Translations under genes and position numbers: made by a program
Assembly (NCBI RefSeq): GCF_002803295.2
Contig: NZ_PGGB02000009.1
Coordinates: 53,324-67,320 of the forward strand
Length of the DNA stretch: 13,997 nucleotides
DNA from: Caedibacter taeniospiralis
Lineage (GTDB): Bacteria > Pseudomonadota > Gammaproteobacteria > Francisellales > Francisellaceae
Direction: 5' to 3'
In this document: positions 1 through 13,997 of the stretch, one piece after another
Layout of the letters: each line of letters opens with the position of its first letter
How positions within the stretch are numbered: the stretch's first letter is position 1
The notes under the pieces: generated by a model
Databases searched by the model: none
What the model was told of the DNA's origin: nothing
Seen by the model: only the letters and a program-made list of their open reading frames with translations

Positions 1-79
1 AAAATTTATACCGCCGAGGATAGCCGATTCGATTTTGTGTATGGATATACAAAATCTATCATGAGGCCCGAGGCACCCT
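1..79. repeat. Left copy of a perfect inverted repeat of at least 79 bp (partner 13916..13994); it runs off the left window edge
   Basis: I reverse-complemented 13916..13994 by hand and it equals 1..79 base for base. Identity stops at 80 (t) versus 13915 (c). The right copy is followed by 'gcc', so the repeat may extend beyond position 1. Confidence 0.92.
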
Positions 80-474
80 TTAAGCTAACAAGTCTTAAAA
101 TAGCGCGCGAAGCAAAGGTGCTTAATCTGGGTAAATTTGTGAAGAACTTAGATGCTGAGCTTGTTGCTGTTAATAATGAAAAACTAAAATTTCTCAAAAG
201 AGAGCAATCACTTAAACGGCAGATTGAGTCTATCAAGACCTACCTGGCTAAAAACATGGCTGAGGGCGAACAATTCAAGGATGCGCAAATCAGGGTGAGC
301 TGGCGCATGCCAAGCGAACAAGTGCATGTGTCTAATGTTGACATGATTCCTGAAAAATATAAACGCATCACGGTTGAAGCAGATAAAATTGAACTTAAAA
401 AAGCGATTAAAAATGGCGAGCTGATTACTGGGGCATACTTGCAGTACGTTGAACCGAGTGTGTTAATCAAATAA
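37..474 (+). CDS. Siphovirus Gp157-family protein, N-terminally truncated or replaced; the homologous part begins about position 80, and the ATGs at 37 and 61 lie inside the inverted repeat
   Basis: The segments 'KFVKNLDAELVAVNNEKLKFLKREQSLKRQIESIKTYL' and 'SWRMPSEQVHVSNVDMIPEKYKRITVEADKIELKKAIKNGELITGAYLQYVEPSVLIK' follow the Gp157 (Sipho_Gp157) pattern as I recall it. Roughly the first 30-45 residues typical of the family are missing, and the break coincides with the repeat boundary at 79/80. Confidence 0.55.
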   Translation: MYGYTKSIMRPEAPFKLTSLKIAREAKVLNLGKFVKNLDAELVAVNNEKLKFLKREQSLKRQIESIKTYLAKNMAEGEQFKDAQIRVSWRMPSEQVHVSNVDMIPEKYKRITVEADKIELKKAIKNGELITGAYLQYVEPSVLIK

Positions 475-486
475 GAGGAAGTCGTT

Positions 487-1293
487 ATGAATATCGCTAT
501 AAGAGAACATGAAACTTTAATACAAGCAGTATCAGCACGAGAGCTTTACCAGTTTCTGGAAATTAGAGCGGATTTCACGCATTGGATGAAGCGAATGCTG
601 GAGTATGGATTTGAAGAAAATATTGACTATCTTTTGCACGTCAAAAATGACGAGCAAAAAAGCGGGCGCGGCGGTTACAACAAGGTGGACTATTTCTTAA
701 CCATTGACTGCGCCAAAGAAATAGCAATGCTTCAGCGTAGCGATAAAGGAAAACAAGCTCGCAAGTATTTTATTGAGTGTGAAAGGCAACTGAAAGAGCA
801 ACAGGCTAATCAAATTAGGGGGCAAAATACTCATGCTATTGGCAGTGGAAACTACATTGAAGCAGCAAAAGTAATGCGAGCAGCGAAGTTAGCTTTAACC
901 GGGTTAATTAAAGACAAAAACCAGTTAGCTATTGCATGTTCTCAGGTAGGTTACAAAGCTACTGGTGTTGATATTGTTAAAGCGGCGGAAATCCCGCTTA
1001 TATCAGCCCAACAGCAGCAATTATTAACCCCTACTCAATTAAGTAAAAGTATTGCCCCAAATCTGTCTGCCCAAAAGGTCAATCAGCTTCTTGAAGCCAA
1101 AGGACTGCAAACCAGAATAAAAGACGCAAAAGGTAATACAGTTTGGGCAGCTACTGAAAAAGGTTTAGATTTTGGCTTGTATCAAGACACGGGCAAAAGA
1201 CATTCAGATGGCGCGCCAGTCAGGCATTTAAATGGTTTGATAGTGTCATTGGTCAGGTGTAATCAATGCAGTACAGCGAATCTGGTGTGTTGA
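487..1293 (+). CDS. AntA/AntB-domain phage antirepressor-like protein
   Basis: A GAGGAA RBS lies before the ATG. The N-terminus 'AVSARELYQFLEIRADFTHWMKRMLEYGFEENIDY...DYFLTIDCAKEIAMLQRSDKGKQARKYFIECE' is the AntA-domain pattern. The last ~20 codons look out of frame (see findings). Confidence 0.7.
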   Translation: MNIAIREHETLIQAVSARELYQFLEIRADFTHWMKRMLEYGFEENIDYLLHVKNDEQKSGRGGYNKVDYFLTIDCAKEIAMLQRSDKGKQARKYFIECERQLKEQQANQIRGQNTHAIGSGNYIEAAKVMRAAKLALTGLIKDKNQLAIACSQVGYKATGVDIVKAAEIPLISAQQQQLLTPTQLSKSIAPNLSAQKVNQLLEAKGLQTRIKDAKGNTVWAATEKGLDFGLYQDTGKRHSDGAPVRHLNGLIVSLVRCNQCSTANLVC

Positions 1294-1316
1294 TTAGGTG
1301 ATAGGAGGAGAAGAGG

Positions 1317-2045
1317 ATGAATCAATTAATAAAACAGCAAAAAACCATGTCAAGTCGTGAGATTGCGGAGATTACAGGTAAAGAGCATAAAAATATTTTG
1401 CGTGATATTGAGAACATGCTTAACGAGCTCAAAATTGAGCTCGTTGAATTCTTAAGCGAATATGTAGATGCCAAGGGAGAGCGAAGAAAAAGCTTTAATC
1501 TACCTAAACGTGAAACTCTCATTTTAGTGTCAGGGTATAACATAGCAATGCGCGCTAAAATTATTGACAGATGGCAGGAACTCGAAGCACAGCGATCACT
1601 GAAAGCACCTCAAAATCTTTTAGAAGCCTTGCAGCTGGCTGTGAAGCTTGAAGAAGAAAAAGAAGCGTTGAGAATTGAAAGCAAGAAAAAAGATCAGCTA
1701 ATCGGTGAATACAAACCAAAAGCAGATTATGTTGATACGATTTTAAAATCAACCTCACTGGTTACGATTACGCAGATTGCCAAAGATTATGGCAAGAGCG
1801 GTCGTGCAATGAATCAATTATTAAATGATTTAGAGATTCAGTATTTTCAGAGCGGACAGTGGTGGCTTTATAGTAAATATCACGCGCAAGGCTATACCCA
1901 TTCGGAGACAATCAGCATTAAGCATAATAGCGGGATTGATGAAATAAGAATGATCACTAAGTGGACTCAAAAAGGACGCCTGTTTTTATATGACAAATTG
2001 AAGACGATAAGCGTTTTACCATTGATTGAACAAAAAGCAGCATAG
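1317..2045 (+). CDS. Rha-family phage regulatory protein with a C-terminal KilAC/ANT antirepressor domain
   Basis: A strong RBS (AGGAGGAG) precedes the ATG. The N-terminus 'MSSREIAEITGKEHKNILRDIENML...FNLPKRETLILVSGYNIAMRAKIIDRWQELE' is Rha-like. The C-terminus 'ADYVDTILKSTSLVTITQIAKDYGKSGRAMNQLL...' is KilAC-like. Confidence 0.75.
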   Translation: MNQLIKQQKTMSSREIAEITGKEHKNILRDIENMLNELKIELVEFLSEYVDAKGERRKSFNLPKRETLILVSGYNIAMRAKIIDRWQELEAQRSLKAPQNLLEALQLAVKLEEEKEALRIESKKKDQLIGEYKPKADYVDTILKSTSLVTITQIAKDYGKSGRAMNQLLNDLEIQYFQSGQWWLYSKYHAQGYTHSETISIKHNSGIDEIRMITKWTQKGRLFLYDKLKTISVLPLIEQKAA

Positions 2046-2047
2046 CT

Positions 2048-2425
2048 GTGCAGTACGAATTTACCACAGACTATCCGCCAAGTGTTAATGGGCTTTATGT
2101 GACAGGCAGAGATGGACGCAAGCATTTAACCAAACAGCACGTTGATTTCAGAAAACAAATTCGCTTAGACATGTTAGAGCAATGCGGGATACCTCAAGCC
2201 ATTAAGTCAAGTGCAGAGCTGACGATTACACTAACCCCTGGCGATAGAAGAAAACGCGATATAGATAATGGGTTAAAAGCACTTTTGGATGGGTTACAAA
2301 AAGCCAGGCTAATCAACGATGACAAGCAAATCAAGAAGCTAAATGTTGTTATGAATGATCGAGATTTAAGCCATGGTGGAAAGTGTCACATTCAACCAAA
2401 AGCACTTAATGCAGTGCAGGAATGA
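2048..2425 (+). CDS. rusA: RusA-family Holliday junction resolvase (GTG start)
   Basis: The motifs 'PPSVNGLY' and 'RRKRDIDNGLKALLDGLQKARLINDDKQI' match RusA hallmarks. The GTG start lies 2 nt after the upstream stop, which suggests translational coupling. Confidence 0.8.
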   Translation: MQYEFTTDYPPSVNGLYVTGRDGRKHLTKQHVDFRKQIRLDMLEQCGIPQAIKSSAELTITLTPGDRRKRDIDNGLKALLDGLQKARLINDDKQIKKLNVVMNDRDLSHGGKCHIQPKALNAVQE

Positions 2426-2723
2426 ATTTGGAAACAAGAGGAATTAATATGGCAATAACAATCGCGCCCATCATCCATTTGAAATTACTATCGATGCGAC
2501 TGTCCAATTTATCAATGCGACTGTCCAGTTTATCAATGCGACTGTCCAGCTTGTCGATACGACCGTTTAATGTGGCAATATCTTTATCCATCTTATCACG
2601 CAAATCTGAAATATCCTCTTTCATTTCAGCTTTAAAACTAGCCATGTCTTCTCTTGTCGCGGCGTGCATCAAAATATCGACAAGCTTATCCTGGGTAATG
2701 GTTACGTTAAATTCATTTTGCAT
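2406..2723 (-). CDS. Repetitive coiled-coil, C-terminally membrane-anchored protein (Bdr-like / DUF1640-like)
   Basis: I chose the ATG at 2723 (MQNEFNV...) because AGGAG lies 7 nt upstream. The longer ORF from 2762 has no SD. The protein has heptad repeats RIDKLDS x3-4 followed by a hydrophobic tail 'WMMGAIVIAILIPLVSKFI'. Its 3' end overlaps the rusA 3' end by 20 nt in convergent orientation. Confidence 0.65.
   Translation of the reverse strand: MQNEFNVTITQDKLVDILMHAATREDMASFKAEMKEDISDLRDKMDKDIATLNGRIDKLDSRIDKLDSRIDKLDSRIDSNFKWMMGAIVIAILIPLVSKFIPALH
2490..2573. repeat. 21-bp tandem repeat, 3 good units plus 1 degenerate unit, in frame within the Bdr-like gene
   Basis: The units are atcgatgcgactgtccaattt, atcaatgcgactgtccagttt, atcaatgcgactgtccagctt and gtcgatacgaccgtttaatgt. 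They encode the RIDKLDS heptads on the minus strand. Confidence 0.9.
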
Positions 2724-2782
2724 AAGGCGCTCCTGTTTTTGCGTCTGGTCAAAGTTTAGCATTAAAAAAGGAGAAACAAAAT

Positions 2783-3085
2783 ATGCACCATCATAATATT
2801 GTTGCCACTACAGGCACTTACACGGCGCAAGATGGTCAGAAGAAATATATCAATAAAACAGTTGGCAAGGTATTTCAGACGCAAAATGGCGTTAAGCTCA
2901 AGCTCGATGCCAGTTTTAATTTAGCGGCACTTGAGCAAACCGCTGATGGCAGTGTGTGGTTGTTAGTATTTCCGCCCAAAGAACAACAAGTCACACAATC
3001 CTATCAAAGCCCAAGTGCCGCACCGTACACACAGCCGACAATGCAACAAATCAATGATTTTGATGATAGTGAAGTACCTTTTTAA
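2783..3085 (+). CDS. Small hypothetical protein with a Q/P-rich linker and an SSB-like acidic C-terminal tip (DFDDSEVPF)
   Basis: An AAGGAG RBS lies 9 nt upstream of the ATG. The layout is a ~62-aa beta-rich N-domain, then 'PPKEQQVTQSYQSPSAAPYTQPTMQQ', then 'INDFDDSEVPF', which mimics SSB linker-plus-tip organisation. Confidence 0.6.
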   Translation: MHHHNIVATTGTYTAQDGQKKYINKTVGKVFQTQNGVKLKLDASFNLAALEQTADGSVWLLVFPPKEQQVTQSYQSPSAAPYTQPTMQQINDFDDSEVPF

Positions 3086-3106
3086 GTATGCAGTTTATGG
3101 TGATGT

Positions 3107-3382
3107 ATGAGCAATGATAGCCACAAATCAACACAACAGAAATCCTTCGTAATTCATGAGGTGTTTTTTAAAAATATGCGTGCGTTTGAGATATATTATG
3201 ATTTGCCTGAAAATACGTTGTCATACATTAAAAAGAAATATAAAACCACGGCTGAAGAAGCAGCTATGCGTGCGATGGAGTTGCCTCAAGTTAAGCGCTA
3301 CATTATTTACCAGAATTCATTCACAGCTAAATTTTTACAGATGAACTTACCAACGACTGATTTTGCTTATTATGTGGGTTAA
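3107..3382 (+). CDS. Hypothetical phage protein
   Basis: The ORF is in backbone orientation with a weak GGTGA SD. I recognise no motif. Confidence 0.45.
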   Translation: MSNDSHKSTQQKSFVIHEVFFKNMRAFEIYYDLPENTLSYIKKKYKTTAEEAAMRAMELPQVKRYIIYQNSFTAKFLQMNLPTTDFAYYVG

Positions 3383-3392
3383 GGAGAAGGTT

Positions 3393-3806
3393 ATGGGAGA
3401 ATTAACCCTTAATATGGGTTATAAGTTGATTAAAAATATAATCGGTGAGGAATATGCTGAAATCGTCCACGATGTGGCATCAAATAATGTCCGCAACAAG
3501 CTTTATTTTCCGATGTATGCGGGGAGGTCATGTGGTGAGCTTAGAAGAGCGTTGCCAAAAGAAGTATTGCAGAAGCTGTCGCAACACTTTGGTGGGCAGA
3601 CGCTTTACATACGCAAAGAAAACCTGAAAATTGATGACTCAAAACTCAAGCAATGGGCAGCAGATGTGCTTAGTAAAGCAGGTGCGTCACCGCGAGAAGT
3701 TGCGCAATTACTGAGGGTGAGAGAAAAGACGGTGCTTAATGGTTATGTTGAGAAACAGGAAAAGCCAGTTGATGACAGCGGGCAGAAGCAGATGTGTTTG
3801 TTTTAA
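3393..3806 (+). CDS. Putative Mor-family-like transcriptional activator (HTH)
   Basis: I chose the ATG at 3393 because AAGGAGAAGG lies just upstream. 'HFGGQTLYIRK' resembles the Mor 'GGxxxYIP(K/R)' signature as I recall it, and a C-terminal HTH-like 'ASPREVAQLLRVREKTV' follows. Confidence 0.4.
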   Translation: MGELTLNMGYKLIKNIIGEEYAEIVHDVASNNVRNKLYFPMYAGRSCGELRRALPKEVLQKLSQHFGGQTLYIRKENLKIDDSKLKQWAADVLSKAGASPREVAQLLRVREKTVLNGYVEKQEKPVDDSGQKQMCLF

Positions 3807-4213
3807 ACAAGTTTTAAATCCAAATGTTTGTCAAAGGTGGCAAGTGCTTGTTCAATGGCTTCAATTTTTGAGCGGTAGTGCAAGTTAAATAATCGATCCA
3901 GATTTGATGGCGCAACCCCTATTTTACTGGCAATATCTGTTTTTTTAAGATTAGATGCAAGCCACTCATTATAGAGATATACTTTGGCAGCCAGTCCAAC
4001 AGGTAGCGTGATATAATCAACGCCAATATGCTGAGGCACGGGAATAGGCTTTTTGTCCTCAATATAAAAATCAAATGCTGAAATAAGCGCATCAACTGCT
4101 TGGTCCTGTAATTCAGATAGCTTTTCAACAGTTGTCACAGCTTCAGGCGCATCAGGGAATGTGACTAAATACTCGCCGTTAGTATCTTCTTGAATATTAA
4201 TGTTATATTTCAT
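3803..4213 (-). CDS. hicB: HicB-family antitoxin (E. coli HicB type, with C-terminal HTH)
   Basis: 'LVTFPDAPEAVT...DALISAFDFYIEDKKPIPVP...RLFNLHYRSKIEAIEQAL' aligns along its full length with E. coli HicB as I recall it. A GAGGTG RBS is present. The gene lies 14 nt downstream of the hicA remnant. Confidence 0.85.
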   Translation of the reverse strand: MKYNINIQEDTNGEYLVTFPDAPEAVTTVEKLSELQDQAVDALISAFDFYIEDKKPIPVPQHIGVDYITLPVGLAAKVYLYNEWLASNLKKTDIASKIGVAPSNLDRLFNLHYRSKIEAIEQALATFDKHLDLKLV

Positions 4214-4227
4214 AATGTCACCTCGTA

Positions 4228-4408
4228 TTATTTTAAATCCAGGTCTTTTTTAATTTTCTCAACCAAGCCTTTACCAATTTCCTTAGCACCATGGTCAGGG
4301 AAAACGGTCTGGTATCCGTTCAAATATACTTTGAAATGGCTTGCCCTTTGCCTTCTTGAACGTGGCGCCGTTGTCTTTTAACCACTTTCTGAACTCACTG
4401 TATTTCAT
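4228..4408 (-). pseudogene. hicA: hicA toxin gene disrupted by a 1-nt insertion (frameshift just before the catalytic GSH motif)
   Basis: My hand translation from 4408 gives MKYSEFRKWLKDNGATFKKAKG and then runs into a stop at 4297..4295. The -1-shifted frame from 4341 reads SHFKVYLNGYQTVFPDHGAKEIGKGLVEKIKKDLDLK*, ending at 4228. The span is 181 nt (3n+1). Removing one A near 4342 restores a 59-aa HicA. Confidence 0.8.
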
Positions 4409-4439
4409 TGAAGAAAGGCTCCACGCTTGTTATGTGTTT

Positions 4440-4467
4440 AGTTTATCAAAAAAGATAAACTTTTCAA
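4440..4467 (-). promoter_or_regulatory. Predicted sigma70-type promoter of the hicAB locus
   Basis: On the minus strand: TTGAAA (4467..4462), a 16-nt spacer, then an extended -10 TGaTAAACT (4448..4440), about 30 nt upstream of the hicA ATG. Confidence 0.45.
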
Positions 4468-4513
4468 GATTAATTTATCAAAAAAGATAAACAACATTAT
4501 CAATTAAGATAAT
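4441..4513. promoter_or_regulatory. Three TTATC-N6-GATAA palindromic operator-like sites
   Basis: The sites are gtttatcaaaaaagataaac (4441..4460), atttatcaaaaaagataaac (4473..4492) and attatcaattaagataat (4496..4513). Site 1 overlaps the predicted -10 and spacer. Confidence 0.6.
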
Positions 4514-4530
4514 AAAACATTGCACAAACT
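4512..4530 (+). promoter_or_regulatory. Copy 1 of a 19-nt motif ATAAAAC(A/T)TTGCACAAACT, upstream of the methylase/terminase operon
   Basis: It is 18/19 identical to 9985..10003. Both copies are intergenic, on the + strand, and immediately downstream of a minus-strand TA cassette. Confidence 0.5.
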
Positions 4531-4732
4531 GTATGGGTGATAATTGTTAGAGTGTAGTGAACATAAGCTTTTAAGGTACTTTCGGAGGCTTGAAAGCACG
4601 GGGGTCGGCTATGCGCAAAAAACACTTTCTGCGTGAATGAAAAAAACGACTTCGTTTCGCTTTTGACACCTATGTGTATGGGGAAAGTGTTAAAAAAGCG
4701 AAATCAATAGCGAAATTAAAGGGGAATGGGGT

Positions 4733-6301
4733 TTGGAAAATAAGATTGAATATTTGGGTATTGATGAGTTGATGCCGTACAAAAATAACGCCCGTACACA
4801 TAGTGAAAATCAAATCAATAAGATTGCCGCCAGTATGCAAGAGTTCGGCTTTATAGCGCCTGTTGTGATTAACGATGAAAATATGATTTTGGCAGGTCAT
4901 GGTCGTCTGATTGCAGCAAAGCAGATAGGACTGCAACAAGTGCCCGTTGTGCGTGTTGCGCATTTAACGAAAGCGCAGCAGCGTGCCTATACTTTAGCTG
5001 ACAATCGCATTGCTGATGATGCGGGCTGGGATGATGAGCTTTTGAAGATTGAGCTTAGTGAACTGAACGAGTTAGATTTTGATTTAACGATGACGGGTTT
5101 TGAAGATGAGGAGTTAAACCGTCTTATCTTTGAAGAGGAGGACGAAGAAGATACATTTTTAACGGATGAGGAAGATTGTCCCGCGGTTGAAAACAATGCG
5201 GTATCTGTCTATGGAGATGTCTGGCTTTTGGGTGAGCATCGGGTGATGTGTGGTGATAGTACGGTGATAAGTGATGTTAAAAAGCTTGTAGGTGATGAAA
5301 AAGCACAACTACTCCACGCCGATCCCCCTTACGGTATGGGCAAGGCTAGTGATGGCGTTGCGAATGATAACTTATACGATGAGAAGCTCGATGACTTTCA
5401 AATGGCGTGGTGGGTGACTTTTCGTACTTTTGTTGCTGACAATGCCAGTGCGTATATTTGGGATAATGCACCCGAGTTATGGCGACTTTGGTATAAACGA
5501 TTAGAGAAGACTGAGCATATAGAGCTGCGCAATCAGATTGTGTGGGATAAAAAAAGCATTGCGGGAATGAAGTCAGAATTAATGACGCAGTTCCCGATTG
5601 CGACAGAACATTGTTTGTTTATGCAGCTTGGCAAGCAGTTTATTGGCTCAATTAACGCAGAGGACTACCCAGAGGAATACGAGGTGATCAGAACTTATCT
5701 AGCCGATGAAGCACAAAAAGCAGGGGTAAAGCAAAAAGACATGCAGCAACATTGCAACTGCCAAATGTATGCCCACTGGTTTACTAAATCCCAATTCACA
5801 TTAATTCCACAAAAGCATTACAAAACACTGCAAGCGGCTTATCCAGAGTACTTTAAAAAGTCATGGAGTGAATTAAAAAAAGAGTGGGATAAGCTAAAAG
5901 GTAAAGGCAGTGAGTTTAAGGCTGGCAAACTACAGTCGATGCGCAGTTATTTCGATAATGCGCACGAAGTGATGCGAGACGTATGGGAGTTTCCACGCGT
6001 CGTTGGTGATGAGCGTCATGGTCACGCAACGCCAAAGCCCGTTGCAATGATGGAACGCATTATGAAATCAAGCTTGCCTGCCAAAGGTTTATGCTTAGAG
6101 CCGTTTGGTGGCAGTGGCGCGACACTGATTGGTGCAGAAAAAACAAAGCGAAAATGTTACACAATGGAGTTGCAGCCCTGCTATGTCGACGTGATTGTTA
6201 AACGTTGGCAAAGTTTTACAGGCAAAGAGGCAATTCATTTAGCGTCTGGCAAAACATTTAATCAATTACTCAATACAGCAGATGAGAAAGTAAGCACATG
6301 A
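4733..6301 (+). CDS. ParB-like nuclease domain fused to an N6-adenine/N4-cytosine DNA methyltransferase (beta class), TTG start
   Basis: The N-terminus 'IEYLGIDELMPYKNNARTHSENQINKIAASMQEFGFIAPVVI...LAGHGRLIAA' is ParB/Srx-like. 'LLHADPPYGMG' is the DPPY motif IV, and the C-terminal 'CLEPFGGSGATLIGAE' is the AdoMet motif I. The conserved residues begin right at the TTG, which is why I chose it as the start. Confidence 0.8.
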   Translation: MENKIEYLGIDELMPYKNNARTHSENQINKIAASMQEFGFIAPVVINDENMILAGHGRLIAAKQIGLQQVPVVRVAHLTKAQQRAYTLADNRIADDAGWDDELLKIELSELNELDFDLTMTGFEDEELNRLIFEEEDEEDTFLTDEEDCPAVENNAVSVYGDVWLLGEHRVMCGDSTVISDVKKLVGDEKAQLLHADPPYGMGKASDGVANDNLYDEKLDDFQMAWWVTFRTFVADNASAYIWDNAPELWRLWYKRLEKTEHIELRNQIVWDKKSIAGMKSELMTQFPIATEHCLFMQLGKQFIGSINAEDYPEEYEVIRTYLADEAQKAGVKQKDMQQHCNCQMYAHWFTKSQFTLIPQKHYKTLQAAYPEYFKKSWSELKKEWDKLKGKGSEFKAGKLQSMRSYFDNAHEVMRDVWEFPRVVGDERHGHATPKPVAMMERIMKSSLPAKGLCLEPFGGSGATLIGAEKTKRKCYTMELQPCYVDVIVKRWQSFTGKEAIHLASGKTFNQLLNTADEKVST

Positions 6302-6302
6302 T

Positions 6303-6812
6303 ATGGCAGCAAATCTTATCACTGCAAGGGTTCTTGCAAAACTACTGAAATTATCAGAACGAAGAGTTCAGCAACTGGTTAAAGAAGGAGTTTTGACAAA
6401 AGAAAAAAATGGACAATATCCGATGATTGAAAATATTCATCGATATATTGATTACATTGGTGTACGTGCAAGGAATAATGACAGTGATATTGATTTAAAT
6501 GTGGCGTTGAAGGAGGAGAAATTGCGATTGATAAAAGCTCAAGCTGACAATCAAGAAATCAAAGCCAAGTTAGCCGCTAAGCAAGTCATTGAAGTGAGTC
6601 GAATTGAAATGGTTCTTGGTGCAGTTTTCACATTGATGCGTGAGCGTTTGCTTAATATCCCAGATAGATCGGAGCGTACACTGGTTGGTGAGACAGACAA
6701 AGATATATTTAAAAAAACACTTACGCATGAAATTACAGATTCAATGTATAGTATTGAAGATGGTATTGATGAAGTGTTTGATAAACTAATCAATGGAGAC
6801 AGTAATGACTGA
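6303..6812 (+). CDS. Terminase small subunit, lambda Nu1-like
   Basis: The N-terminal winged-HTH 'ARVLAKLLKLSERRVQQLVKEGVL' and the later 'KLRLIKAQADNQEIKAKL' follow the Nu1 layout. The start lies 1 nt after the methylase stop, immediately upstream of TerL. Confidence 0.7.
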   Translation: MAANLITARVLAKLLKLSERRVQQLVKEGVLTKEKNGQYPMIENIHRYIDYIGVRARNNDSDIDLNVALKEEKLRLIKAQADNQEIKAKLAAKQVIEVSRIEMVLGAVFTLMRERLLNIPDRSERTLVGETDKDIFKKTLTHEITDSMYSIEDGIDEVFDKLINGDSND

Positions 6813-8619
6813 GCTGGAGCTAAAAAAATTGATTCACGCTTGCTTTGAAAAATATTTTTTACCAGCAAAAGAAATGAACATTTCACAGTGGTCAGAAGCC
6901 TATGTATATTTGCCAGCAGGCACCTCGGCAGTACCAGGCAGGTGGCGAACATTGCCCTATCAGGTTGGCGTAATGGAGGCAGCAGAAAATACAAAAATAA
7001 ACAAAATCACCTTAATGTGGGGAAGTCAGTTAGGGAAAACGGCGTTAATCAATAATATTCTTGGTTACTACATTCAACATCAACCTGCGTCACAAATGAT
7101 GATGCAACCCAGTGAAACAGATACAAAAATTTGGTTAAATACAAAATTCTATCCAATGGTCAGAAACAGTAAAGAAATTGAAAGATGTCTTGCAAAGCCA
7201 CGGGGACGTGATGGTGTTAATACTAATCAAATGAAAGAGTACTACGGAGGGTTTCTAATGATGGCTTGGTCGGGCTCCCCAAATACCATGCGCGGGCGCT
7301 CGGCACCGAAGATTTATGCCGATGAGGTCGATGGTTATGAGCGCACCAGCGAGGGGCATCCCGTTAATTTATTATGGCAGCGTGCGGCAACTTTTGGCAG
7401 CAAGCGTAAGCTATTAATCACAAGCACCCCGACGCACAAAGGGGCGTCATTTGTTGAAATGAGTTATCTATCGGGTGACCAGCGTCAATTCTACGTGCCC
7501 TGCCCGCACTGCAATGAATTTCAAACTTTACAATGGAAAAATGTCACTTGGCAAAGTGATAAAGGAAAACATGATATTAAAAGCGCACGCTACGCATGCG
7601 AGCATTGTGGTAGTTTAATCAATGACGGACAAAAACTGGCGATGATTCGCAAGGGTGAATGGCGAGCAAATATGCCATTTAATGGGCATGCAAGCTTTCA
7701 TTTAAACGAGTTATACAGTCCCTTTAGAACCTTTGCTGATATTGTGCAATCGTTTTTGGAGAAGAAACAAACAGGTGATTTAAAAACCTTTGTGAATGTG
7801 TCATTGGCTGAAACATGGGAGGAGGAAGGTGAACAGCTAGAGCCAGGCAGTTTATTGGCGCGTGTTGAGTACTGGGAAGCATTACCAGAGGGTGTTGCTT
7901 TAATTACCGCTGGCATCGATGTGCAGCAGGATAGAATTGAACTGCAAGCCGTTGGCTGGGGCGTGGGTGAAGAAAGCTGGATAATTGATTATAAAGTCTT
8001 TCATGGCGAAACCAGTGAGGATGAGGTTTGGCGTGAGCTTACGCAATACCTTGTGCATAAGCGTTATCCGCATCAGTCTGGTAAACAACTGCCCATTGCT
8101 TTTGCCTGCTTAGATACAGGGGGCACTAATAACATGACCTCCAAAGCCTATGATTATGTCAGGCGCAGTCGGATTGGCTTGCCCTTTGCAATCAAAGGTC
8201 GCGGTGGTGAGCATCCTTTCGTTGCTGCCCCAAGTCGCAAACGTGTGCCCAATAAGAAGGCGTTTGATTTATACATGATTGGCATGGATGAGGGTAAAAG
8301 TATTTTATACAACCGTTTGAGACTTGAAGAAGAGAAAGGTGCAAGCGTCATCCACTTTGATGCTAAGGTGTGTGATGCGCGTTATTTTGGGCAGTTGACC
8401 GCTGAAAAACGATTATTGCGCTATCAAAAAGGTTTCCCAAAGTATGAATGGCATAATGTCGCCCCTGATAAGCGCAACGAAGCACTAGACACATATATCT
8501 ACGCGCTAGCGGCATTAAGGATTACCAATATTGATTTGAGCTTAAAACGCCAGCAGTTAAAGCAAGAAGCGAAGGACAATCCAAAGAAAGCAACAGCTAA
8601 AAAGAGTTACAAACTTTAA
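6805..8619 (+). CDS. Terminase large subunit, lambda GpA family
   Basis: The size is about 600 aa. It has a Walker-A-like 'GSQLGKT', a zinc-ribbon 'CPHCNEFQ...CEHCGS', and general GpA-family similarity. I prefer the ATG at 6805 (GGAGA 6 nt upstream); the in-frame ATG at 6793 is an alternative. Confidence 0.85.
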   Translation: MTELELKKLIHACFEKYFLPAKEMNISQWSEAYVYLPAGTSAVPGRWRTLPYQVGVMEAAENTKINKITLMWGSQLGKTALINNILGYYIQHQPASQMMMQPSETDTKIWLNTKFYPMVRNSKEIERCLAKPRGRDGVNTNQMKEYYGGFLMMAWSGSPNTMRGRSAPKIYADEVDGYERTSEGHPVNLLWQRAATFGSKRKLLITSTPTHKGASFVEMSYLSGDQRQFYVPCPHCNEFQTLQWKNVTWQSDKGKHDIKSARYACEHCGSLINDGQKLAMIRKGEWRANMPFNGHASFHLNELYSPFRTFADIVQSFLEKKQTGDLKTFVNVSLAETWEEEGEQLEPGSLLARVEYWEALPEGVALITAGIDVQQDRIELQAVGWGVGEESWIIDYKVFHGETSEDEVWRELTQYLVHKRYPHQSGKQLPIAFACLDTGGTNNMTSKAYDYVRRSRIGLPFAIKGRGGEHPFVAAPSRKRVPNKKAFDLYMIGMDEGKSILYNRLRLEEEKGASVIHFDAKVCDARYFGQLTAEKRLLRYQKGFPKYEWHNVAPDKRNEALDTYIYALAALRITNIDLSLKRQQLKQEAKDNPKKATAKKSYKL

Positions 8620-8942
8620 AGCACAGCTAATTTTGAACTAACAAGTCGATTAAGGCTTATGCCTTGCTCAGCTGCTTTAATAGCAAGAGTTCGATGCGAT
8701 TCAGGTGGTATTCTAACCATAAATGAACCGCTATACTTTTTCTCAGAAAGTGGCGCTGGAATTGCTTCAGCGGAGGCTTGCATATCAAACAAAACCTCAT
8801 GCACAGTTGTGCGAATTCCTTTCAAAGCTAATTCAGGGGATGTGTCAAGCCACGATAATGAAGGGAATTCAGCGCATAAGCCAATGTACTCATTATCATC
8901 AGCTGACCAGGTAACACGGTAGGTATAGTGATCGGCATTCAT
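8616..8942 (-). CDS. hicB: HicB-family antitoxin (N-terminal HicB fold plus C-terminal RHH-type 'RIPPESHRTLAIKAAEQGISLNRLV')
   Basis: The motif pattern fits, and an ATGA start/stop overlap with the upstream hicA is typical of a TA operon. Confidence 0.75.
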   Translation of the reverse strand: MNADHYTYRVTWSADDNEYIGLCAEFPSLSWLDTSPELALKGIRTTVHEVLFDMQASAEAIPAPLSEKKYSGSFMVRIPPESHRTLAIKAAEQGISLNRLVSSKLAVL

Positions 8943-9187
8943 TTTTGCATGTCCTCCAATTTTTTAATGGCTAGCAGAACTTGTTTCACCTGATACGGTT
9001 TAGCTTTGCCATTAGCATTTTGAATATTGATTCTGGGGTCACCAATCCAAGGGGTTTTAAATATCATGTGACTACTGCCAGATTGTCTAGGCTCACCAAA
9101 ATATTCTGTGCATATCTTAGCAAGTTCGTTAAAACTCACATGAGCAGGATTGTTTTTCATTTGCGCTAAAACTTTGTTAGTCGGCAC
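8939..9187 (-). CDS. hicA: HicA-family toxin (GTG start at 9187; an in-frame ATG 9 codons downstream is an alternative)
   Basis: 'GSSHMIFKTPWIGDPRINIQNANGKAKPYQVKQVLLAIKKLE' carries the GSxH core and a conserved tail of a HicA subfamily as I recall it. It is paired with the downstream hicB. Confidence 0.7.
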   Translation of the reverse strand: MPTNKVLAQMKNNPAHVSFNELAKICTEYFGEPRQSGSSHMIFKTPWIGDPRINIQNANGKAKPYQVKQVLLAIKKLEDMQK

Positions 9188-9217
9188 GCTACTATGCTCG
9201 TTTTATATTTTGCACCA

Positions 9218-9246
9218 ATAGTAGCAATATTGATACTAAAAGTCAA
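9218..9246 (-). promoter_or_regulatory. Predicted promoter of the second hicAB pair, with an overlapping 20-bp near-palindrome
   Basis: On the minus strand: TTGACT (9246..9241), 17 nt, TACTAT (9223..9218). The sequence tagtagcaatattgatacta (9219..9238) is an 18/20 palindrome spanning the spacer and -10. Confidence 0.5.
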
Positions 9247-9326
9247 ATAAGTAAGGACAGATTGACGTACTGTTGACATCCTACGCTCCGCAAAGGAAGG
9301 TGTTTTACGGCGCCTCTTTATAAACT

Positions 9327-9635
9327 CTAAGCAGCACACTCATGTAAATCCACCGCAAAATGAATATTATTTCTGTCGAGTAAATCTTGTAAGGCAAGCT
9401 CAATAAAAACTTGTTCAGAATGTCCTAGAATTTGTGCAAATTTTTGTGCCTGCTTGACACTCATTGTTTTACGGTTATTTTCAAGAGCAGATAAATATTG
9501 CTTTGAAACACCGAGTTTATTTGCGAAATCAGCTTGGCTAGATTCTTCACAAGTTCGTAAAGCCCATATTGCTTTGCCAAGCGTTAGTTTTGCTCCAGTT
9601 ATACTTTCAATTAATCTGCTTGTTTCAGTATTCAT
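9327..9635 (-). CDS. XRE-family HTH antitoxin (HigA-like)
   Basis: The HTH 'SQADFANKLGVSKQYLSALENNRKTMSVKQAQKFAQIL' is present, a GAGGTGA RBS precedes the start, and the gene overlaps the upstream toxin gene by 11 nt. Confidence 0.75.
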   Translation of the reverse strand: MNTETSRLIESITGAKLTLGKAIWALRTCEESSQADFANKLGVSKQYLSALENNRKTMSVKQAQKFAQILGHSEQVFIELALQDLLDRNNIHFAVDLHECAA

Positions 9636-9921
9636 GTTTATTCACCTCATCAATTTCAATATAATTCAGTTCAACACTTCCCTTAGCATGTTCGGTATAA
9701 ATGGCACGATGTGCTTTGTTTAATCGTACTGACCGCTGACCTTTTCTATTTCCCTGCAGAGGTTCATCATGATAACCTTTGCATTTTCTCGTTTCTATCA
9801 GACCAATAGCTTCCACCGACCTTGTCCACATCGTGATTTTTAAAGCAATTTGCGCAGGGACTTTCTTTAAATCCTTCTGAGCTTGTTTACCCAATTTAAT
9901 GTGTTTTGTTTCCATAAACAT
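9625..9921 (-). CDS. RelE/ParE-superfamily toxin (HigB-like; toxin-first gene order)
   Basis: 'HDEPLQGNRKGQRSVRLNKAHRAIY...IEIDEVNKHEY' follows the RelE/HigB-type pattern (xLxGxxxGxxSxRLxxxxRxxY ... H-Y). It is followed by the XRE antitoxin. The start is either 9921 or 9915. Confidence 0.7.
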   Translation of the reverse strand: MFMETKHIKLGKQAQKDLKKVPAQIALKITMWTRSVEAIGLIETRKCKGYHDEPLQGNRKGQRSVRLNKAHRAIYTEHAKGSVELNYIEIDEVNKHEY

Positions 9922-9947
9922 CGGCTTATGACGTTAGGTTAAATGTT

Positions 9948-9976
9948 ATAGTAAACCAAAAAGGTTTATATTTCAA
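9948..9976 (-). promoter_or_regulatory. Predicted promoter of the higBA-like pair, with a perfect palindrome in the spacer
   Basis: On the minus strand: TTGAAA (9976..9971), 17 nt, TACTAT (9953..9948). TAAACC-N5-GGTTTA (9952..9968) is a perfect 17-bp palindrome. Confidence 0.5.
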
Positions 9977-9984
9977 GGAAATAG

Positions 9985-10003
9985 ATAAAACTTTGCACAA
10001 ACT
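9985..10003 (+). promoter_or_regulatory. Copy 2 of the 19-nt motif ATAAAAC(A/T)TTGCACAAACT, upstream of the gpW/portal/capsid operon
   Basis: It is 18/19 identical to 4512..4530 and lies 48 nt upstream of the gpW ATG. Confidence 0.5.
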
Positions 10004-10050
10004 CCCCTTCCCCTGCTCCATAAAATAGCTTTATTAAAGATGGGGGGCTT

Positions 10051-10299
10051 ATGGATATTGAGAAAGAGTTACAGCAGAAATATGCTGAGTTAGAGGCGAT
10101 TCGTGCATCCATTAATAAGGTCATCGGCAATGCGCATATTGAATCGTATAGCGCAACAGGTAATTCAATCACGTATCGTGAAATGAAAGATTTGCGTGCG
10201 GAGGAGTCACGGCTGATGTTTGCGATTAATCAGCTTGAGCTGATCAAACAAGGTCAACGAGGCTCGAGCATTGTGAGCACAAGCTTTAGGGTGCGCTAA
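10051..10299 (+). CDS. Head-tail joining / head completion protein, lambda gpW-like
   Basis: The size and position match lambda (between TerL and the portal). The helical N-terminus 'YAELEAIRASINKVI' followed by 'YSATGNSITYREMKDLRAEESRL' follows the gpW pattern. A TAATG overlap joins it to the portal start. Confidence 0.6.
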   Translation: MDIEKELQQKYAELEAIRASINKVIGNAHIESYSATGNSITYREMKDLRAEESRLMFAINQLELIKQGQRGSSIVSTSFRVR

Positions 10300-11774
10300 T
10301 GGGCTTGTTATCATTGTTTAAGCGTGAGAGAGGAGCAAAACGCACAAGCCCATCATTTGAATTCATCGCACAAAAGCGCATGTACGAGGCAGCGCGTTCA
10401 CAGTTGGTGCGTGATGTTTTTAGTGGAGGTGATATCGATGAGATCATTGAATCGCAATCCAGTGCGATTTTGCGTCGCGCGCGTGAAGCCTATGCTAACA
10501 ATGATTATGTCAAAGGCTATATATCGATGGCGTGCACGAATATTATTGGACATCAAGGCATCCGCATTCAGTGCAAAACGCAAAGTGAATCACTGAACAA
10601 TAAAACGGAGCTTAACTTTAATCGTTGGGCGCGTCGGGGCAGATGTGATGTTACGGGACAGCTGTCACTTATTGATGTGCAGCTTGCCTGTGTACGTGCG
10701 CTTTTGCGGGATGGTGAGTTTTTTGTATTAAAACACGTCATCGATGGACAGTTGCAATTGCAGTTAATTGACAACACAAGAATTGATGTCACTAAACGTG
10801 CGACATTAAGCAATGGCAATAAAATCATTAACGGCATAGAACTCAATCAGCTTGGTAGGCCTCAAGCGTATTATTTGTTGGCTGATAATGGCGCGGATAC
10901 ACAGCGCATTGCGGCAAGCAACATCATTCACGGGTTTATTCATGAGTTTATCGGGCAAAAGCGTGGCATTTCAACGATTGCCACGGCATTAATTCGGCTG
11001 GGACTCTTGAAAGAGTTTGAAACGGCTGCCGTGGATAACGCCAGATGCAATGCTAAATCGATGGGGTTTTTCAATCAAGCAGAAACAGAGGTTGATTATA
11101 ATGCCTTAGCAGAAAGAGACAGGGAGGCGGATAATAGCTTTGATATCCAAACCTTAGATGACCGCGCACAATTTCATGTGATTAAGTCAGGATATAAGCT
11201 CGAGAAGTTTGACGGGCAGTTTCCAAGCGCCAACTATGCTCCGTTTAAAGAGTCTATTTTAAAAGCGATTAGTTCCAGTCTGGGTTATGGGGTCAATTAC
11301 ATCAATCTGGGCAATGATTTAAAAGGGGTGAGTTACTCAAGTGCGAGACAAGGCTTATTAAGCGAGCGTGATGCGTGGCGTATGCTGCAAACACTGCTTA
11401 TTGACACCTTAATGCACCCTGTTTTTGACAGTTGGCTTGAGGTTGAGTATTCAAGCGGCAGATTAGGCAACATCAGTGTGTTAAGCTTGGATAATTTAAT
11501 TGATACGGTACGCTTTCAAACGCGCGCATGGGCATGGATTGACCCATTGAAAGATGCCAAAGGCACCACTGAAAGCATTAATAATCGCACGATAAGCTTG
11601 TCGCAAGCTATTCTAGACGCAGGTGGCGACCCTGAGGATACCTTAAAGCAAATTGCTGCTGATTTAGTGCGCTTAAAAGAGCTAGGCATCGTCAATGAGG
11701 TAAGCCCTGAAGAAGACATTCAAAAACAAGTGGAGGATGGAGTAAACAATGCAGAACTATATCAAGACGATTAA
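10299..11774 (+). CDS. Portal protein, lambda family
   Basis: The protein is 491 aa. 'LRRAREAYANNDYVKGYISMACTNIIGHQGIRIQ' and the overall layout are typical of lambda-family (gpB-like) portals. Its position after gpW also fits. Confidence 0.85.
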   Translation: MGLLSLFKRERGAKRTSPSFEFIAQKRMYEAARSQLVRDVFSGGDIDEIIESQSSAILRRAREAYANNDYVKGYISMACTNIIGHQGIRIQCKTQSESLNNKTELNFNRWARRGRCDVTGQLSLIDVQLACVRALLRDGEFFVLKHVIDGQLQLQLIDNTRIDVTKRATLSNGNKIINGIELNQLGRPQAYYLLADNGADTQRIAASNIIHGFIHEFIGQKRGISTIATALIRLGLLKEFETAAVDNARCNAKSMGFFNQAETEVDYNALAERDREADNSFDIQTLDDRAQFHVIKSGYKLEKFDGQFPSANYAPFKESILKAISSSLGYGVNYINLGNDLKGVSYSSARQGLLSERDAWRMLQTLLIDTLMHPVFDSWLEVEYSSGRLGNISVLSLDNLIDTVRFQTRAWAWIDPLKDAKGTTESINNRTISLSQAILDAGGDPEDTLKQIAADLVRLKELGIVNEVSPEEDIQKQVEDGVNNAELYQDD

Positions 11775-13641
11775 AGAAGCGGAAATTTTGACCCGTGATT
11801 ACACGTTTAATGCCACGCATAGTAAGATTGATATGGATAAGCGCACGGTTGAGTTGAGTTTTTCAAGTAATACGCCCTACCAGCGTTGGCAAGATGCCAA
11901 TGAAGTATTGGAGCATCACGCGGGAGCGATTGATTTAACCCGCTTAAATAACAAGGGAGCGCTGCTTATCAATCACGACTGGAATCGCCAGATTGGGGTG
12001 GTTGAGCATGCGTATATCGATGGCGATAAAGCGCGCGCCGTGGTGAAGTTTTCCAAGCGTCAGGAAGCCCAGGACTTTTTTCAAGATGTTCAAGATGGGA
12101 TTATTGCCAATGTATCCGTAGGCTACAAAGTCGATGAAGCAGAGCCTGATGCAACCAATAAAGCGGTACGTGTGACGCACTGGCAACCGTTTGAGATTTC
12201 ATTAGTCAGTGTGCCTGCAGATGTCACCGTAGGCATTGGACGCAATTTTGCACAAAGTTGCAATGATGAAGCTGCTAAGCTAGATGCAGTTTTAGATAAG
12301 GTTAGTAAAAGTAAAAACAATCCTGAGGGGGAGAGAATGAGTAACGACGTAAAAGAAGTAAAAGAAGTTAAAACAGAGTCACAAATCACACGCTCATTTG
12401 ATGAGGGTATTAAAAATGAGCGTGAGCGGATTGCAAAAATTGACGCACTGGCAAGGAAATTCAATCAGGCAGAGTTTGCACGCAGCTACATTGAAGGTGG
12501 AAAACCTTTTGAGCAGTTTGAGCGTGACTTTGTCGAACATGTGCAGTGGGTTCAGGAAAAGCGGGAAAGAATGACCAAGCTGGAAAGCAACAGCCCGCAA
12601 GTTAATGCGGTACAATCCTGTGCCAATAACATTGGAATGAATGATAAAGAAACGCGCGAGTTCAGTTTATCGCGTGCGGTACGTGCACTGGTTAATCCGT
12701 TTGATATGAAGGCGCGTGAGGCTGCCAGTTTTGAGTTTGAGGCTTCCGATGCTGCAAAGCGTAAGCTTGGCATTAATGATGATTCGCTGATGATTCCACC
12801 TGATGTGCTGCAGCGTGATTTCAGTATTGCCACTGGGCGTAATGCTTTAGTGCCAACACAACTGCAGAGCTCTAGTTTTATTGACATGTTGCGTAACAAG
12901 TCGATTATGCTTAGCATTGCACGCAGGTTATCTGGCTTGCGAGGGAATGTGGATATTCCACGCCAGGTGGAAGGGTCTAATATTTACTGGGTTGGGGAAA
13001 AGCAAGACGTTGGTGAAGGCAAGCTCACCACTGACCAGGTTCATTTAACACCAAAGACCCTGGGTGCTTATTTGGAGGTCTCGCGCATGCTGATGATCAA
13101 TAGCTCACTGGATGCCGAAACCATGGTGCGTAACGACTTATTGGCAGCAGTAGCACTGGGAATTGATACGGCGGCATTGTATGGCACTGGCAGCAATCAT
13201 CAACCGTTAGGCTTAACGGGAGTTAGCGGTATCACTGCTGTTGAATATGCAGGAGATAATCCAACCTTAGCGGATTATATCGGCTTAGAAACCAGTATTG
13301 CATTACAAAATGCCGATGTTGCTAACATGCGTTATCTACTCAATCCTGCGCTCAGGGGTGCGGCTAAAACCACACCAAGATTGCCAGGCAGTGAAATGAC
13401 GGTATGGGAGCCAGGCAATACAATTAATGGCTATTCGGTTGAGGTCAGCAATCAGATTAAACCAAATCAGGTGATCTTTGGTGACTTTAGCCAGTTGATT
13501 GTAGGGTTGTGGGATGGTTTACGCTTAACGGTGAACCCCTATAGCCTGGATAAATCAGGTGGTATCCGTTTGGTGGTGATGCAAAGTGTGGACTTTGCGG
13601 TGCGTCGTCCTGAGTCGTTTGCGATTGCTAACAAAAAGTAA
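11749..13641 (+). CDS. Single ORF fusing an HK97-type (S78/U35) prohead protease to an HK97-fold major capsid protein
   Basis: Protease motifs are 'LLINHDWNRQIGVV', 'NVSVGYKV' and 'FEISLVSVPAD' in residues 1-165. A coiled-coil delta-like region follows, then a capsid domain ('LGAYLEVSRML...LGIDTAALYGTGSNHQPLGL...FGDFSQLIVGLWDGL'). GGAGGATGGAG lies before the ATG. Confidence 0.85.
   Translation: MQNYIKTIKEAEILTRDYTFNATHSKIDMDKRTVELSFSSNTPYQRWQDANEVLEHHAGAIDLTRLNNKGALLINHDWNRQIGVVEHAYIDGDKARAVVKFSKRQEAQDFFQDVQDGIIANVSVGYKVDEAEPDATNKAVRVTHWQPFEISLVSVPADVTVGIGRNFAQSCNDEAAKLDAVLDKVSKSKNNPEGERMSNDVKEVKEVKTESQITRSFDEGIKNERERIAKIDALARKFNQAEFARSYIEGGKPFEQFERDFVEHVQWVQEKRERMTKLESNSPQVNAVQSCANNIGMNDKETREFSLSRAVRALVNPFDMKAREAASFEFEASDAAKRKLGINDDSLMIPPDVLQRDFSIATGRNALVPTQLQSSSFIDMLRNKSIMLSIARRLSGLRGNVDIPRQVEGSNIYWVGEKQDVGEGKLTTDQVHLTPKTLGAYLEVSRMLMINSSLDAETMVRNDLLAAVALGIDTAALYGTGSNHQPLGLTGVSGITAVEYAGDNPTLADYIGLETSIALQNADVANMRYLLNPALRGAAKTTPRLPGSEMTVWEPGNTINGYSVEVSNQIKPNQVIFGDFSQLIVGLWDGLRLTVNPYSLDKSGGIRLVVMQSVDFAVRRPESFAIANKK
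12337..13641 (+). CDS. Possible nested in-frame major capsid protein (delta domain plus HK97 fold) from an internal start
   Basis: The in-frame ATG at 12337 is preceded by GAGGGGGAGAG, the strongest SD-like run in the window. It sits exactly at the protease/capsid domain junction. Confidence 0.45.
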   Translation: MSNDVKEVKEVKTESQITRSFDEGIKNERERIAKIDALARKFNQAEFARSYIEGGKPFEQFERDFVEHVQWVQEKRERMTKLESNSPQVNAVQSCANNIGMNDKETREFSLSRAVRALVNPFDMKAREAASFEFEASDAAKRKLGINDDSLMIPPDVLQRDFSIATGRNALVPTQLQSSSFIDMLRNKSIMLSIARRLSGLRGNVDIPRQVEGSNIYWVGEKQDVGEGKLTTDQVHLTPKTLGAYLEVSRMLMINSSLDAETMVRNDLLAAVALGIDTAALYGTGSNHQPLGLTGVSGITAVEYAGDNPTLADYIGLETSIALQNADVANMRYLLNPALRGAAKTTPRLPGSEMTVWEPGNTINGYSVEVSNQIKPNQVIFGDFSQLIVGLWDGLRLTVNPYSLDKSGGIRLVVMQSVDFAVRRPESFAIANKK

Positions 13642-13690
13642 CAAAAAGATAGTAAAAAGATAGTAAAAAGATGGTAAAAAGATAGTATAA
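13630..13690. repeat. 10-11-bp tandem repeat carrying five phased A5 tracts
   Basis: The sequence is aacaaaaagt aacaaaaagat agtaaaaagat agtaaaaagat ggtaaaaagat agtat. The A5 tracts start at 13633, 13643, 13654, 13665 and 13676. Confidence 0.9.
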
Positions 13691-13700
13691 GGGGCTGGAA

Positions 13701-13895
13701 ATGAAAGCAGAATTGTTGCGATCGATTGTTGCGGCAGGTGAAGCGCGCAAGGTCGGTGATGTGGTTGAGTTGACTAAAAATGAATATGATTTTTTAGTCA
13801 GTCGCGGGCTTGTCAAAACGGTTGTTGATAAAGAAGTACTCGAAGAAAAGCAGCCAGCTTTACGTAAAGCAAATAGCAAAAAGACAGATAATTAA
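13701..13895 (+). CDS. Small hypothetical phage protein downstream of the capsid gene
   Basis: An AAGGGG SD lies 7 nt upstream and the ORF is in backbone orientation. I can assign no family securely. Confidence 0.5.
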   Translation: MKAELLRSIVAAGEARKVGDVVELTKNEYDFLVSRGLVKTVVDKEVLEEKQPALRKANSKKTDN

Positions 13896-13915
13896 ACGAT
13901 GGCAGTCTATCTGGC

Positions 13916-13994
13916 AGGGTGCCTCGGGCCTCATGATAGATTTTGTATATCCATACACAAAATCGAATCGGCTATCCTCGGCGGTATAAATTTT
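13916..13994. repeat. Right copy of the perfect inverted repeat of at least 79 bp (partner 1..79)
   Basis: It is the exact reverse complement of 1..79 and begins 20 nt after the stop of the last ORF. Confidence 0.92.
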
Positions 13995-13997
13995 GCC

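Follow-up and report, generated by a model that had tools for sequence, protein, structure and literature searches.

The perfect inverted arms that enclose a prophage fragment in a 13,997-nt stretch of the genome of Caedibacter taeniospiralis (hereafter the window; contig NZ_PGGB02000009.1, positions 53,324 to 67,320) are very probably the conserved end modules of a non-coding mobile repeat of ~291 bp that is present here in two separate copies of opposite orientation, one lying in a gene of the siphovirus Gp157 family and the other in the first head-completion gene. C. taeniospiralis is an R-body-producing obligate endosymbiont of Paramecium tetraurelia. The repeat is present in many copies that share exact termini and it interrupts genes; in the prophage it has both disrupted genes and fragmented the phage genome. 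We regard this as a case of ordinary genome decay caused by a dispersed repeat, with an apparently undescribed element behind it.

Window positions 1–79 are the exact reverse complement of positions 13916–13994 (79 nt, 100% identity, 13836 nt apart), as an earlier reading of the letters and open reading frames (ORFs) alone (the sequence-only reading) had claimed and as a repeat search and direct reading both bore out. This is far beyond chance, since the next best inverted repeat in the window measures only 31 nt (71% identity) and all others are no longer than that (71–89%). The right arm continues for three more bases up to the window edge (GCC on the plus strand, GGC in element orientation), which also match the element and bring the match to 82 nt. 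Both arms are therefore cut by the window edges, the left arm beginning at base 1 and the last bases of the right arm still matching the element, and the arm lengths of 79 and 82 nt are set by where the sequence stops and not by biology. The arms resemble a short perfect inverted terminal repeat because the window stops 79 and 82 nt into two copies. The left arm (1–79, plus strand) corresponds to element positions 213–291, ends at the terminus ...GGCACCCT and matches with 100% identity the five copies found on pKAP298, a C. taeniospiralis plasmid, as well as 20 others, while the right arm (13916–13997, minus strand) corresponds to positions 210–291 of a second copy in reverse orientation. Each arm holds a subterminal imperfect hairpin, GATTTTGTGTAT-GG-ATATACAAAATC (31–56, plus strand, mirrored at 13939–13964), which was recovered as a blastn self-match and as a stem in DNA and RNA folds, with a fold energy not significantly better than that of shuffled sequences (z −0.8).

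The arms were traced to a dispersed repeat through pKAP298, which matches the first 82 bases of the window at 100% in five places and has no match to the rest of it. On the plasmid the arm forms the 3' end of a discrete 291-nt unit (locus L002, 21747–22037) that begins CGCTGCGAGCCATGG... and finishes ...GAGGCCCGAGGCACCCT. The five pKAP298 copies have unrelated flanks and comprise four full-length copies (96–100% identical) and one 116-nt copy in which positions 1–33 are joined to 209–291. An exact search with the terminal 30-mer retrieved 18 metagenome contigs, and queries with element-derived peptides gave three proteins whose tails come from the element (a RefSeq C. taeniospiralis integrase, Cas1c and a metagenome protein), from which two further complete copies with both flanks were reached (loci L010 and L029), giving 20 copies outside the window and pKAP298. 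In total, 27 copies of the terminus (2 in the window, 5 on pKAP298 and 20 on metagenome or Caedibacter contigs) have 27 different flanks and all end ...CACCCT. The sequence-only reading had proposed determining the copy number and context of the 79-mer, and this yielded the 25 termini outside the window, all differently flanked; it had also proposed that a 79-mer occurring only as a contig-end overlap would undo the observation, and the 79-mer is found at 100% identity at the five pKAP298 sites. With respect to flanking genes there is no orientation bias (8 same sense, 9 antisense and 10 unclear).

The repeat is specific to C. taeniospiralis and close relatives. No exact match to the terminal 30-mer was found among 185,579 species-representative genomes, the full element matched only pKAP298 among plasmids and phages at blastn sensitivity, and a 69-mer of the arm had no match in viral contigs. 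The related prophage loci contain no copy of the element, and the metagenome contigs that carry it contain no prophage DNA. The repeat routinely ends short-read contigs, because 17 of the 18 metagenome contigs that carry it stop inside it: these copies break off where the contig or stored stretch ends or ≤12 nt from that point, and ~119–127 nt of the repeat often remain.

The ends of the element are fixed (CGCTGCGAGCC... and ...GGCACCCT) and mutually unrelated. Terminal inverted repeats (TIRs) are absent, the best complementarity between the first and last 60 nt amounting to 8 matches containing one gap, and there is no ORF above ~60 codons in any frame of the element, all observed copies being ≤291 nt long. 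On either strand no Rfam family matched at the gathering threshold or at E ≤ 1 in context (matches to the element alone were noise at E 4.5–6), a transfer RNA scan of the arms and element returned nothing, and a scan of the element for sigma-70 promoters and terminators found none. RNA and DNA folds of the element and its ends are no better than shuffles, apart from an 11-bp imperfect hairpin located 23 nt from the CCCT end; the first 54 nt likewise fold no better than shuffles (z +0.7 and +1.4). Two candidate features were rejected: an outward promoter read by eye (TTGTGT-N16-TATCAT) failed the criteria of the promoter scan, and apparent covariation between two subfamilies at positions 141–196 was not compensatory on inspection.

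Sites where the interrupted coding sequence can be rebuilt reveal a constant footprint. At locus L010 the element lies inside a 15-nt tandem-repeat coding array, and only a deletion of the element together with one A beside the CCCT end brings back the register and a frame of 599 codons. At locus L029 it lies inside a tyrosine integrase gene, which becomes complete again, with its catalytic motifs HDLRH...LGH...Y, once the element and 1 nt are taken out; for two pKAP298 copies, too, the longest ORF across the site results when the element is removed together with 1 nt. The additional nucleotide is an extra base and not a 1-bp duplication, because in three of the four informative copies the base at −1, before one end, is not the same as that at +1, after the other. 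A target-site duplication (TSD) of fixed length was not found, L010 and L029 being restored by removal of the element and 1 nt. Across the 27 copies the base after CACCCT is A in 13, G in 8, T in 6 and C in none, with T as the following base in 16 of 26. At the other end, C is found at −4 in all eight complete copies (5' flanks CGCT, CATA, CAAT, CACT, CGCT, CCTC, CATA and CTAA). The mismatch rate between copies is 4.2% at positions 1–208 and 0.05% (a single change) at positions 209–291, and the smallest derivative keeps only positions 1–33 and 209–291, that is ~33 nt of one end and ~83 nt of the other. That the ends are kept in the smallest derivative and that the last 83 nt are almost invariant suggests a non-autonomous element moved in trans, which would require an enzyme yet to be named.

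Comparison with intact relatives places both arms inside prophage genes. Nucleotide homology to the intact syntenic prophages of Fastidiosibacter and Cysteiniphilum is confined to window positions 82–13914. On the left, the 3' 130 codons of a Gp157-family gene (82–474, plus strand; Pfam PF05565, E = 5e-22) follow the arm, and full-length homologues of 162 aa (84–86% identical) are found in Fastidiosibacter lacustris and Cysteiniphilum halobium. In the frame-1 translation the Sipho_Gp157 match sets in at residue 29, equivalent to profile position 31, and homology begins at residue 33 of the homologues (KLTSLK), at window base 82, so that 32 N-terminal codons are missing. The sequence-only reading had placed the boundary at 79/80 inside this gene with a loss of about 30–45 codons, a figure that the 162-aa homologues sharpen to 32. 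Between the element terminus and the resumed homology lie two junction bases, TT (80–81, plus strand), of which base 80 probably represents the one nucleotide added with each insertion. The annotated protein WP_100551063 (RefSeq; 137 aa, MRPEAP..., window 61–474) is a chimera of element and phage, because its start codon, the ATG at position 61, lies within the left arm. The same element-internal ATG opens an annotated coding sequence (CDS) on pKAP298 (25138–25374).

On the right, the arm begins at position 13916, 20 nt past the stop at 13895 of a small post-capsid ORF (13701–13895, plus strand; 64 aa, RefSeq WP_100551081, weak DUF7210 match), which is the distance that the sequence-only reading had given. 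Its expectation that head-completion genes would follow also held, those 20 nt containing the start of the next gene as judged from the intact related prophage: positions 13899–13915 (plus strand, ATGGCAGTCTATCTGGC) align with the ATG and first 16–17 nt of this gene in loci L005 and L008. The right arm therefore cuts a gene as well, a homologue of a 106-aa ORF of the F. lacustris prophage (L005, 12138–12458), with which the blastn alignment of the window stops at position 13914; base 13915 is probably the extra junction nucleotide of the right copy. The same reading had also held that this is no normal prophage border. Attachment (att) sites would be direct repeats at prophage/host junctions beside an integrase; the repeats of the window are inverted and both stand within prophage genes, in agreement with that view.

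The related intact prophages are ~40 kb long and the window segment is an internal piece of such a genome, with which it is collinear (RecT, Gp157, RusA in some loci, ParB-methylase, terminases, portal and capsid). The body of the fragment (487–13641, plus strand), delimited by Pfam scans and by synteny and 70–85% nucleotide identity with loci L003, L004, L005 and L008, represents the early-right, packaging and head region of a temperate phage according to the Pfam scans. It encodes AntA, Rha/KilAC, RusA, a ParB-methylase, a Nu1-like small terminase, a GpA-type large terminase, HicAB, a lambda-type portal and a protease-capsid fusion, as well as a second toxin pair consisting of a helix-turn-helix protein and a weakly HigB/RelE-like toxin (sub-threshold Pfam matches). 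The prophage is of the lambda-head/P2-tail type. A megablast search of the whole window against the phage collection gave no match, and the large terminase is at most 49% identical to that of known phages. The proteins of the window correspond to RefSeq C. taeniospiralis WP_100551063 to WP_100551081, encoded on one 74,898-bp chromosomal contig.

Further remnants are present elsewhere in the genome. Another C. taeniospiralis contig (42.9 kb, locus L029) carries a P2-like tail module (gpD, gpX, gpU, tape measure, chaperone, tube and sheath; 11433–17776) that matches the far end of the F. lacustris prophage at 79–89% identity and is severed from its baseplate and head-completion genes; in the intact relative, ~6.4 kb separate the window piece from this tail piece. 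Beside the module, a tyrosine integrase gene (10001–11436) is split by an element copy at 10846–11134. The C. taeniospiralis genome papers mention 'one incomplete prophage of ca. 12 kb' that carries a terminase and HicB, which is evidently the window region, and this description understates the phage remnants, because the tail module and the split integrase are also found on the L029 contig.

Under the reading that we favour, the two copies would have arisen by independent insertions into one prophage, and the 13.8-kb piece may since have been detached from the remainder of the phage genome by recombination between copies of the repeat, which are numerous; each flanking copy would be either full-length or a deletion variant. 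The CCCT ends face inward because two independent insertions in opposite orientation give this arrangement. Several points weigh against this reading. That the element is mobile we infer from how its copies are distributed and from sites of clean insertion, the window ends before the outer flanks of its two copies are reached, so that their full length is presumed, and no transposase or partner enzyme has been identified. Moreover, the element fails the defining tests both of MITEs (transposable elements of the miniature inverted-repeat type) and of IS200/IS605-derived elements. A description of the repeat was not found in the accessible Caedibacter literature; the original pKAP298 paper (Jeblick & Kusch 2005), which lies outside that literature, may already describe it.

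The sequence-only reading had offered four explanations of the arms, of which two inverted copies of an insertion sequence (IS), MITE or other mobile element around a captured phage fragment comes closest. A composite unit in which two copies captured the 13.8-kb fragment and moved as one piece has the geometry of the Tn5 and Tn10 composite transposons, a segment between two inverted copies of one mobile element with identical ends inward, and the same geometry recurs around a 3.3-kb terminase segment of pKAP298. The flanking units of the window differ from those of Tn5 and Tn10, however, in being 291-bp and non-coding, with no transposase ORF, no TIRs and two dissimilar ends, and there is no sign that the unit has moved. 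The outer ends of such a unit would be two CGCTGCG ends and not the normal left and right pair, both breakpoints are at positions collinear with the intact prophage, as expected of two insertions in situ, and under random orientation a quarter of copy pairs show this geometry. We consider the composite unit highly improbable; two inverted copies of a small, mobile, multi-copy element do flank the fragment, but they are not an IS or a MITE (no transposase ORF, TIR or TSD), and composite capture is unsupported. It is very improbable, too, that the 13.8-kb piece flips between the inverted copies, as a programmed switch or a RecA-driven polymorphism. Two inverted, near-identical copies of up to 291 bp are known to be an adequate substrate for homologous recombination, and copies of the element coincide with rearrangement breakpoints elsewhere, for example where a group II intron of pKAP298 is 5'-truncated exactly at an element end. 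Against this, no ORF in the window encodes an invertase or recombinase gene or domain, and the repeat is dispersed, with 25 other copies, and is not a dedicated inversion site, so that site-specific inversion, as the sequence-only reading had it, finds no support.

The proposal of a small linear phage or plasmid, with the arms as its inverted terminal repeats, agrees with their position at, or ≤3 nt from, both window ends, but it is refuted: 25 other loci, whose flanks are unrelated, carry the same sequence with the same terminus, two genes of a collinear prophage of the ~40-kb type are cut at the inner boundaries, Pfam scans found no protein-primed polymerase or protelomerase in the window, and the genes sit on the 74.9-kb chromosomal contig. 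An assembly artefact, with the arms being k-mer overlaps or chimeric joins at a repeat, is quite improbable. The genome papers describe a draft assembled from short reads with ABySS (24 contigs, later 18 with Oxford Nanopore Technologies (ONT) reads), 79 nt would equal k − 1 for k = 80, contigs habitually end in the repeat as described above, and joins past a repeat of more than 20 copies can be wrong. Yet the inner junctions coincide exactly with the terminus of the element and show its customary extra base, like the clean insertions at other loci, whereas a chimeric join would fall inside shared sequence, and the RefSeq 74.9-kb contig carries these genes, ONT reads having served to check and join contigs. 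An artefact thus leaves the exact terminus and the 1-nt footprint of the junctions unexplained, and it still bears on the arm length and on joins beyond the repeats.

Small non-autonomous repeats are familiar from obligate intracellular bacteria, among them the Rickettsia palindromic elements. The element resembles bacterial MITEs and other small repeats of such hosts in its size class (0.1–0.3 kb), lack of coding capacity, multiple copies with differing flanks and precise ends, and it shares with the small repeats of host-restricted bacteria the insertion into both genes and intergenic regions, chimeric ORF tails, pseudogenes and broken short-read assemblies; the MITEs of Coxiella burnetii (PMC5896051) provide a comparison case. 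Unlike MITEs, it has neither TIR nor TSD, carries one untemplated-looking nucleotide at one end, has unrelated ends and has no known parent IS. Small derivatives of the IS200/IS605 family (palindrome-associated transposable elements) are similar in lacking TIRs and TSDs and in having asymmetric ends, a subterminal imperfect hairpin near one end and either orientation relative to genes. They differ in that the element has its 11-bp imperfect hairpin near the CCCT end only, has an extra junction base and lacks a conserved 4–5-nt target 5' of its left end, where only the C at −4 is common (8 of 8); no TnpA/TnpB or omega-RNA/HEARO match was found for the element. Fragments of group II introns and other retro-mobile RNAs likewise lack TIRs and TSDs and combine one precise junction with one that has an extra nucleotide, a pair reported for the retrohoming of linear intron RNA. 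In contrast to group II introns, the element has no model match on either strand, no GUGYG 5' end and no domain V, and folds like shuffled sequence. A group II intron is present on pKAP298 (38855–41058; reverse transcriptase ORF 39601–40626, domain V/VI 40945–41058), lacking the first ~60–100 nt of domain I and beginning exactly at the CGCTGCG end of the element copy at 38855–39145. The candidate view of the element as the 5' part of this intron was rejected, there being no model match and the intron being simply 5'-truncated.

The element is best described as an unclassified non-autonomous mobile repeat that belongs to no described family. It is unlikely to represent a new class that dispenses with the classical cut- or copy-and-paste DNA route and is instead spread as a retro-mobilised RNA, like a short interspersed nuclear element, or through a single-strand or rolling-circle intermediate. 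This idea comes from the combination of one precise junction with another bearing an untemplated-looking base of 'A-rule' spectrum, the lack of TIRs and TSDs and the invariant 83-nt module, which looks as if it were a recognition or priming site; the group II intron beside one pKAP298 copy encodes a reverse transcriptase and could be the source of the enzyme. Were a discrete RNA to begin at AGGGUGCC, the retro-mobile version would be favoured. The footprint as a whole (no TIR, no TSD, one added nucleotide and an invariant 83-nt end) makes the element a candidate for an undescribed mobilisation mechanism, as a lead and not as a result.

Two independent insertions of the repeat, our preferred explanation of the arms, account for the start and end points of the fragment: the 'incomplete prophage' of C. 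taeniospiralis has been cut by a lineage-specific mobile repeat. As the same repeat interrupts cas1c, the integrase and other genes, it appears to be an active agent of genome decay in this obligate endosymbiont. For genome scans, the case cautions that ends of a phage-like contig or window which look like perfect inverted terminal repeats may simply come from a dispersed repeat, with one copy cut off at either edge of the sequence.

Further observations concern individual copies of the repeat. On pKAP298 (21747–25646), a 3.3-kb phage-like segment (22038–25355) with a terminase family protein and two hypothetical genes lies between inverted full-length copies whose CCCT ends point inward, which is the geometry of the window. 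A diverged (81%) solo copy at pKAP298 48084–48130 consists of the last 47 nt only (the hairpin and ...CACCCT), stands upstream of a CDS (48211–48477) and might be what is left of an older subfamily, or else a native site that is related. In the C. taeniospiralis Cas1c protein (P0012, RefSeq; type I-C, 329 aa), the last ~37 residues come from another deletion variant of the element (...GCLGPHDRFCISIHKIESAILGGINFAR followed by DSTLRLG); cas1 has been truncated by insertion, since this C-terminal tail derives from the element. The CRISPR array described in the C. taeniospiralis genome paper has only 3 repeats and 2 spacers. At locus L013 (179–555, minus strand), a degenerate IS3-like remnant lies directly beyond the CGCTGCG end, with an N-terminus MKLEKMIQELL... 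(leucine zipper) and then a C-terminal rve fragment. The 7 nt beside this copy (CTTCATA) are identical to those beside the pKAP298 copy at 38855–39145, which may be coincidence or target preference. Specific targeting of integrase genes was a candidate that did not hold: a second cut integrase suggested by tblastn (locus L024) proved to have an unrelated membrane sensor as its flank, the match arising from an element-derived tail.

Other repeats and sites of the window belong to the phage DNA itself. Between the capsid stop at 13641 and the ATG at 13701, there are 4.1 tandem copies of an 11-nt unit, AAAAAGATAGT (13643–13687), and the homologous spacer of the F. lacustris prophage has a single such unit; with a period of one helical turn and A-tract units, this array may reflect bent DNA or slippage. 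A 21-nt tandem repeat (3.6 copies, 2489–2563) encodes RIDKLDS heptads within an ORF on the minus strand (2406–2762) for a 118-aa, membrane-anchored coiled-coil protein with weak XhlA-like and DUF matches, and an antisense ORF of about the same length overlaps it. In the 350 nt of non-coding DNA upstream of the genes for the ParB-methylase and the terminases, a 23-nt palindromic site, TTAGTTTATC-AAAAAA-GATAAAC, occurs twice, 32 nt apart (4438–4492), and the pair could be an operator, an activator site of a late promoter or a packaging-related site.

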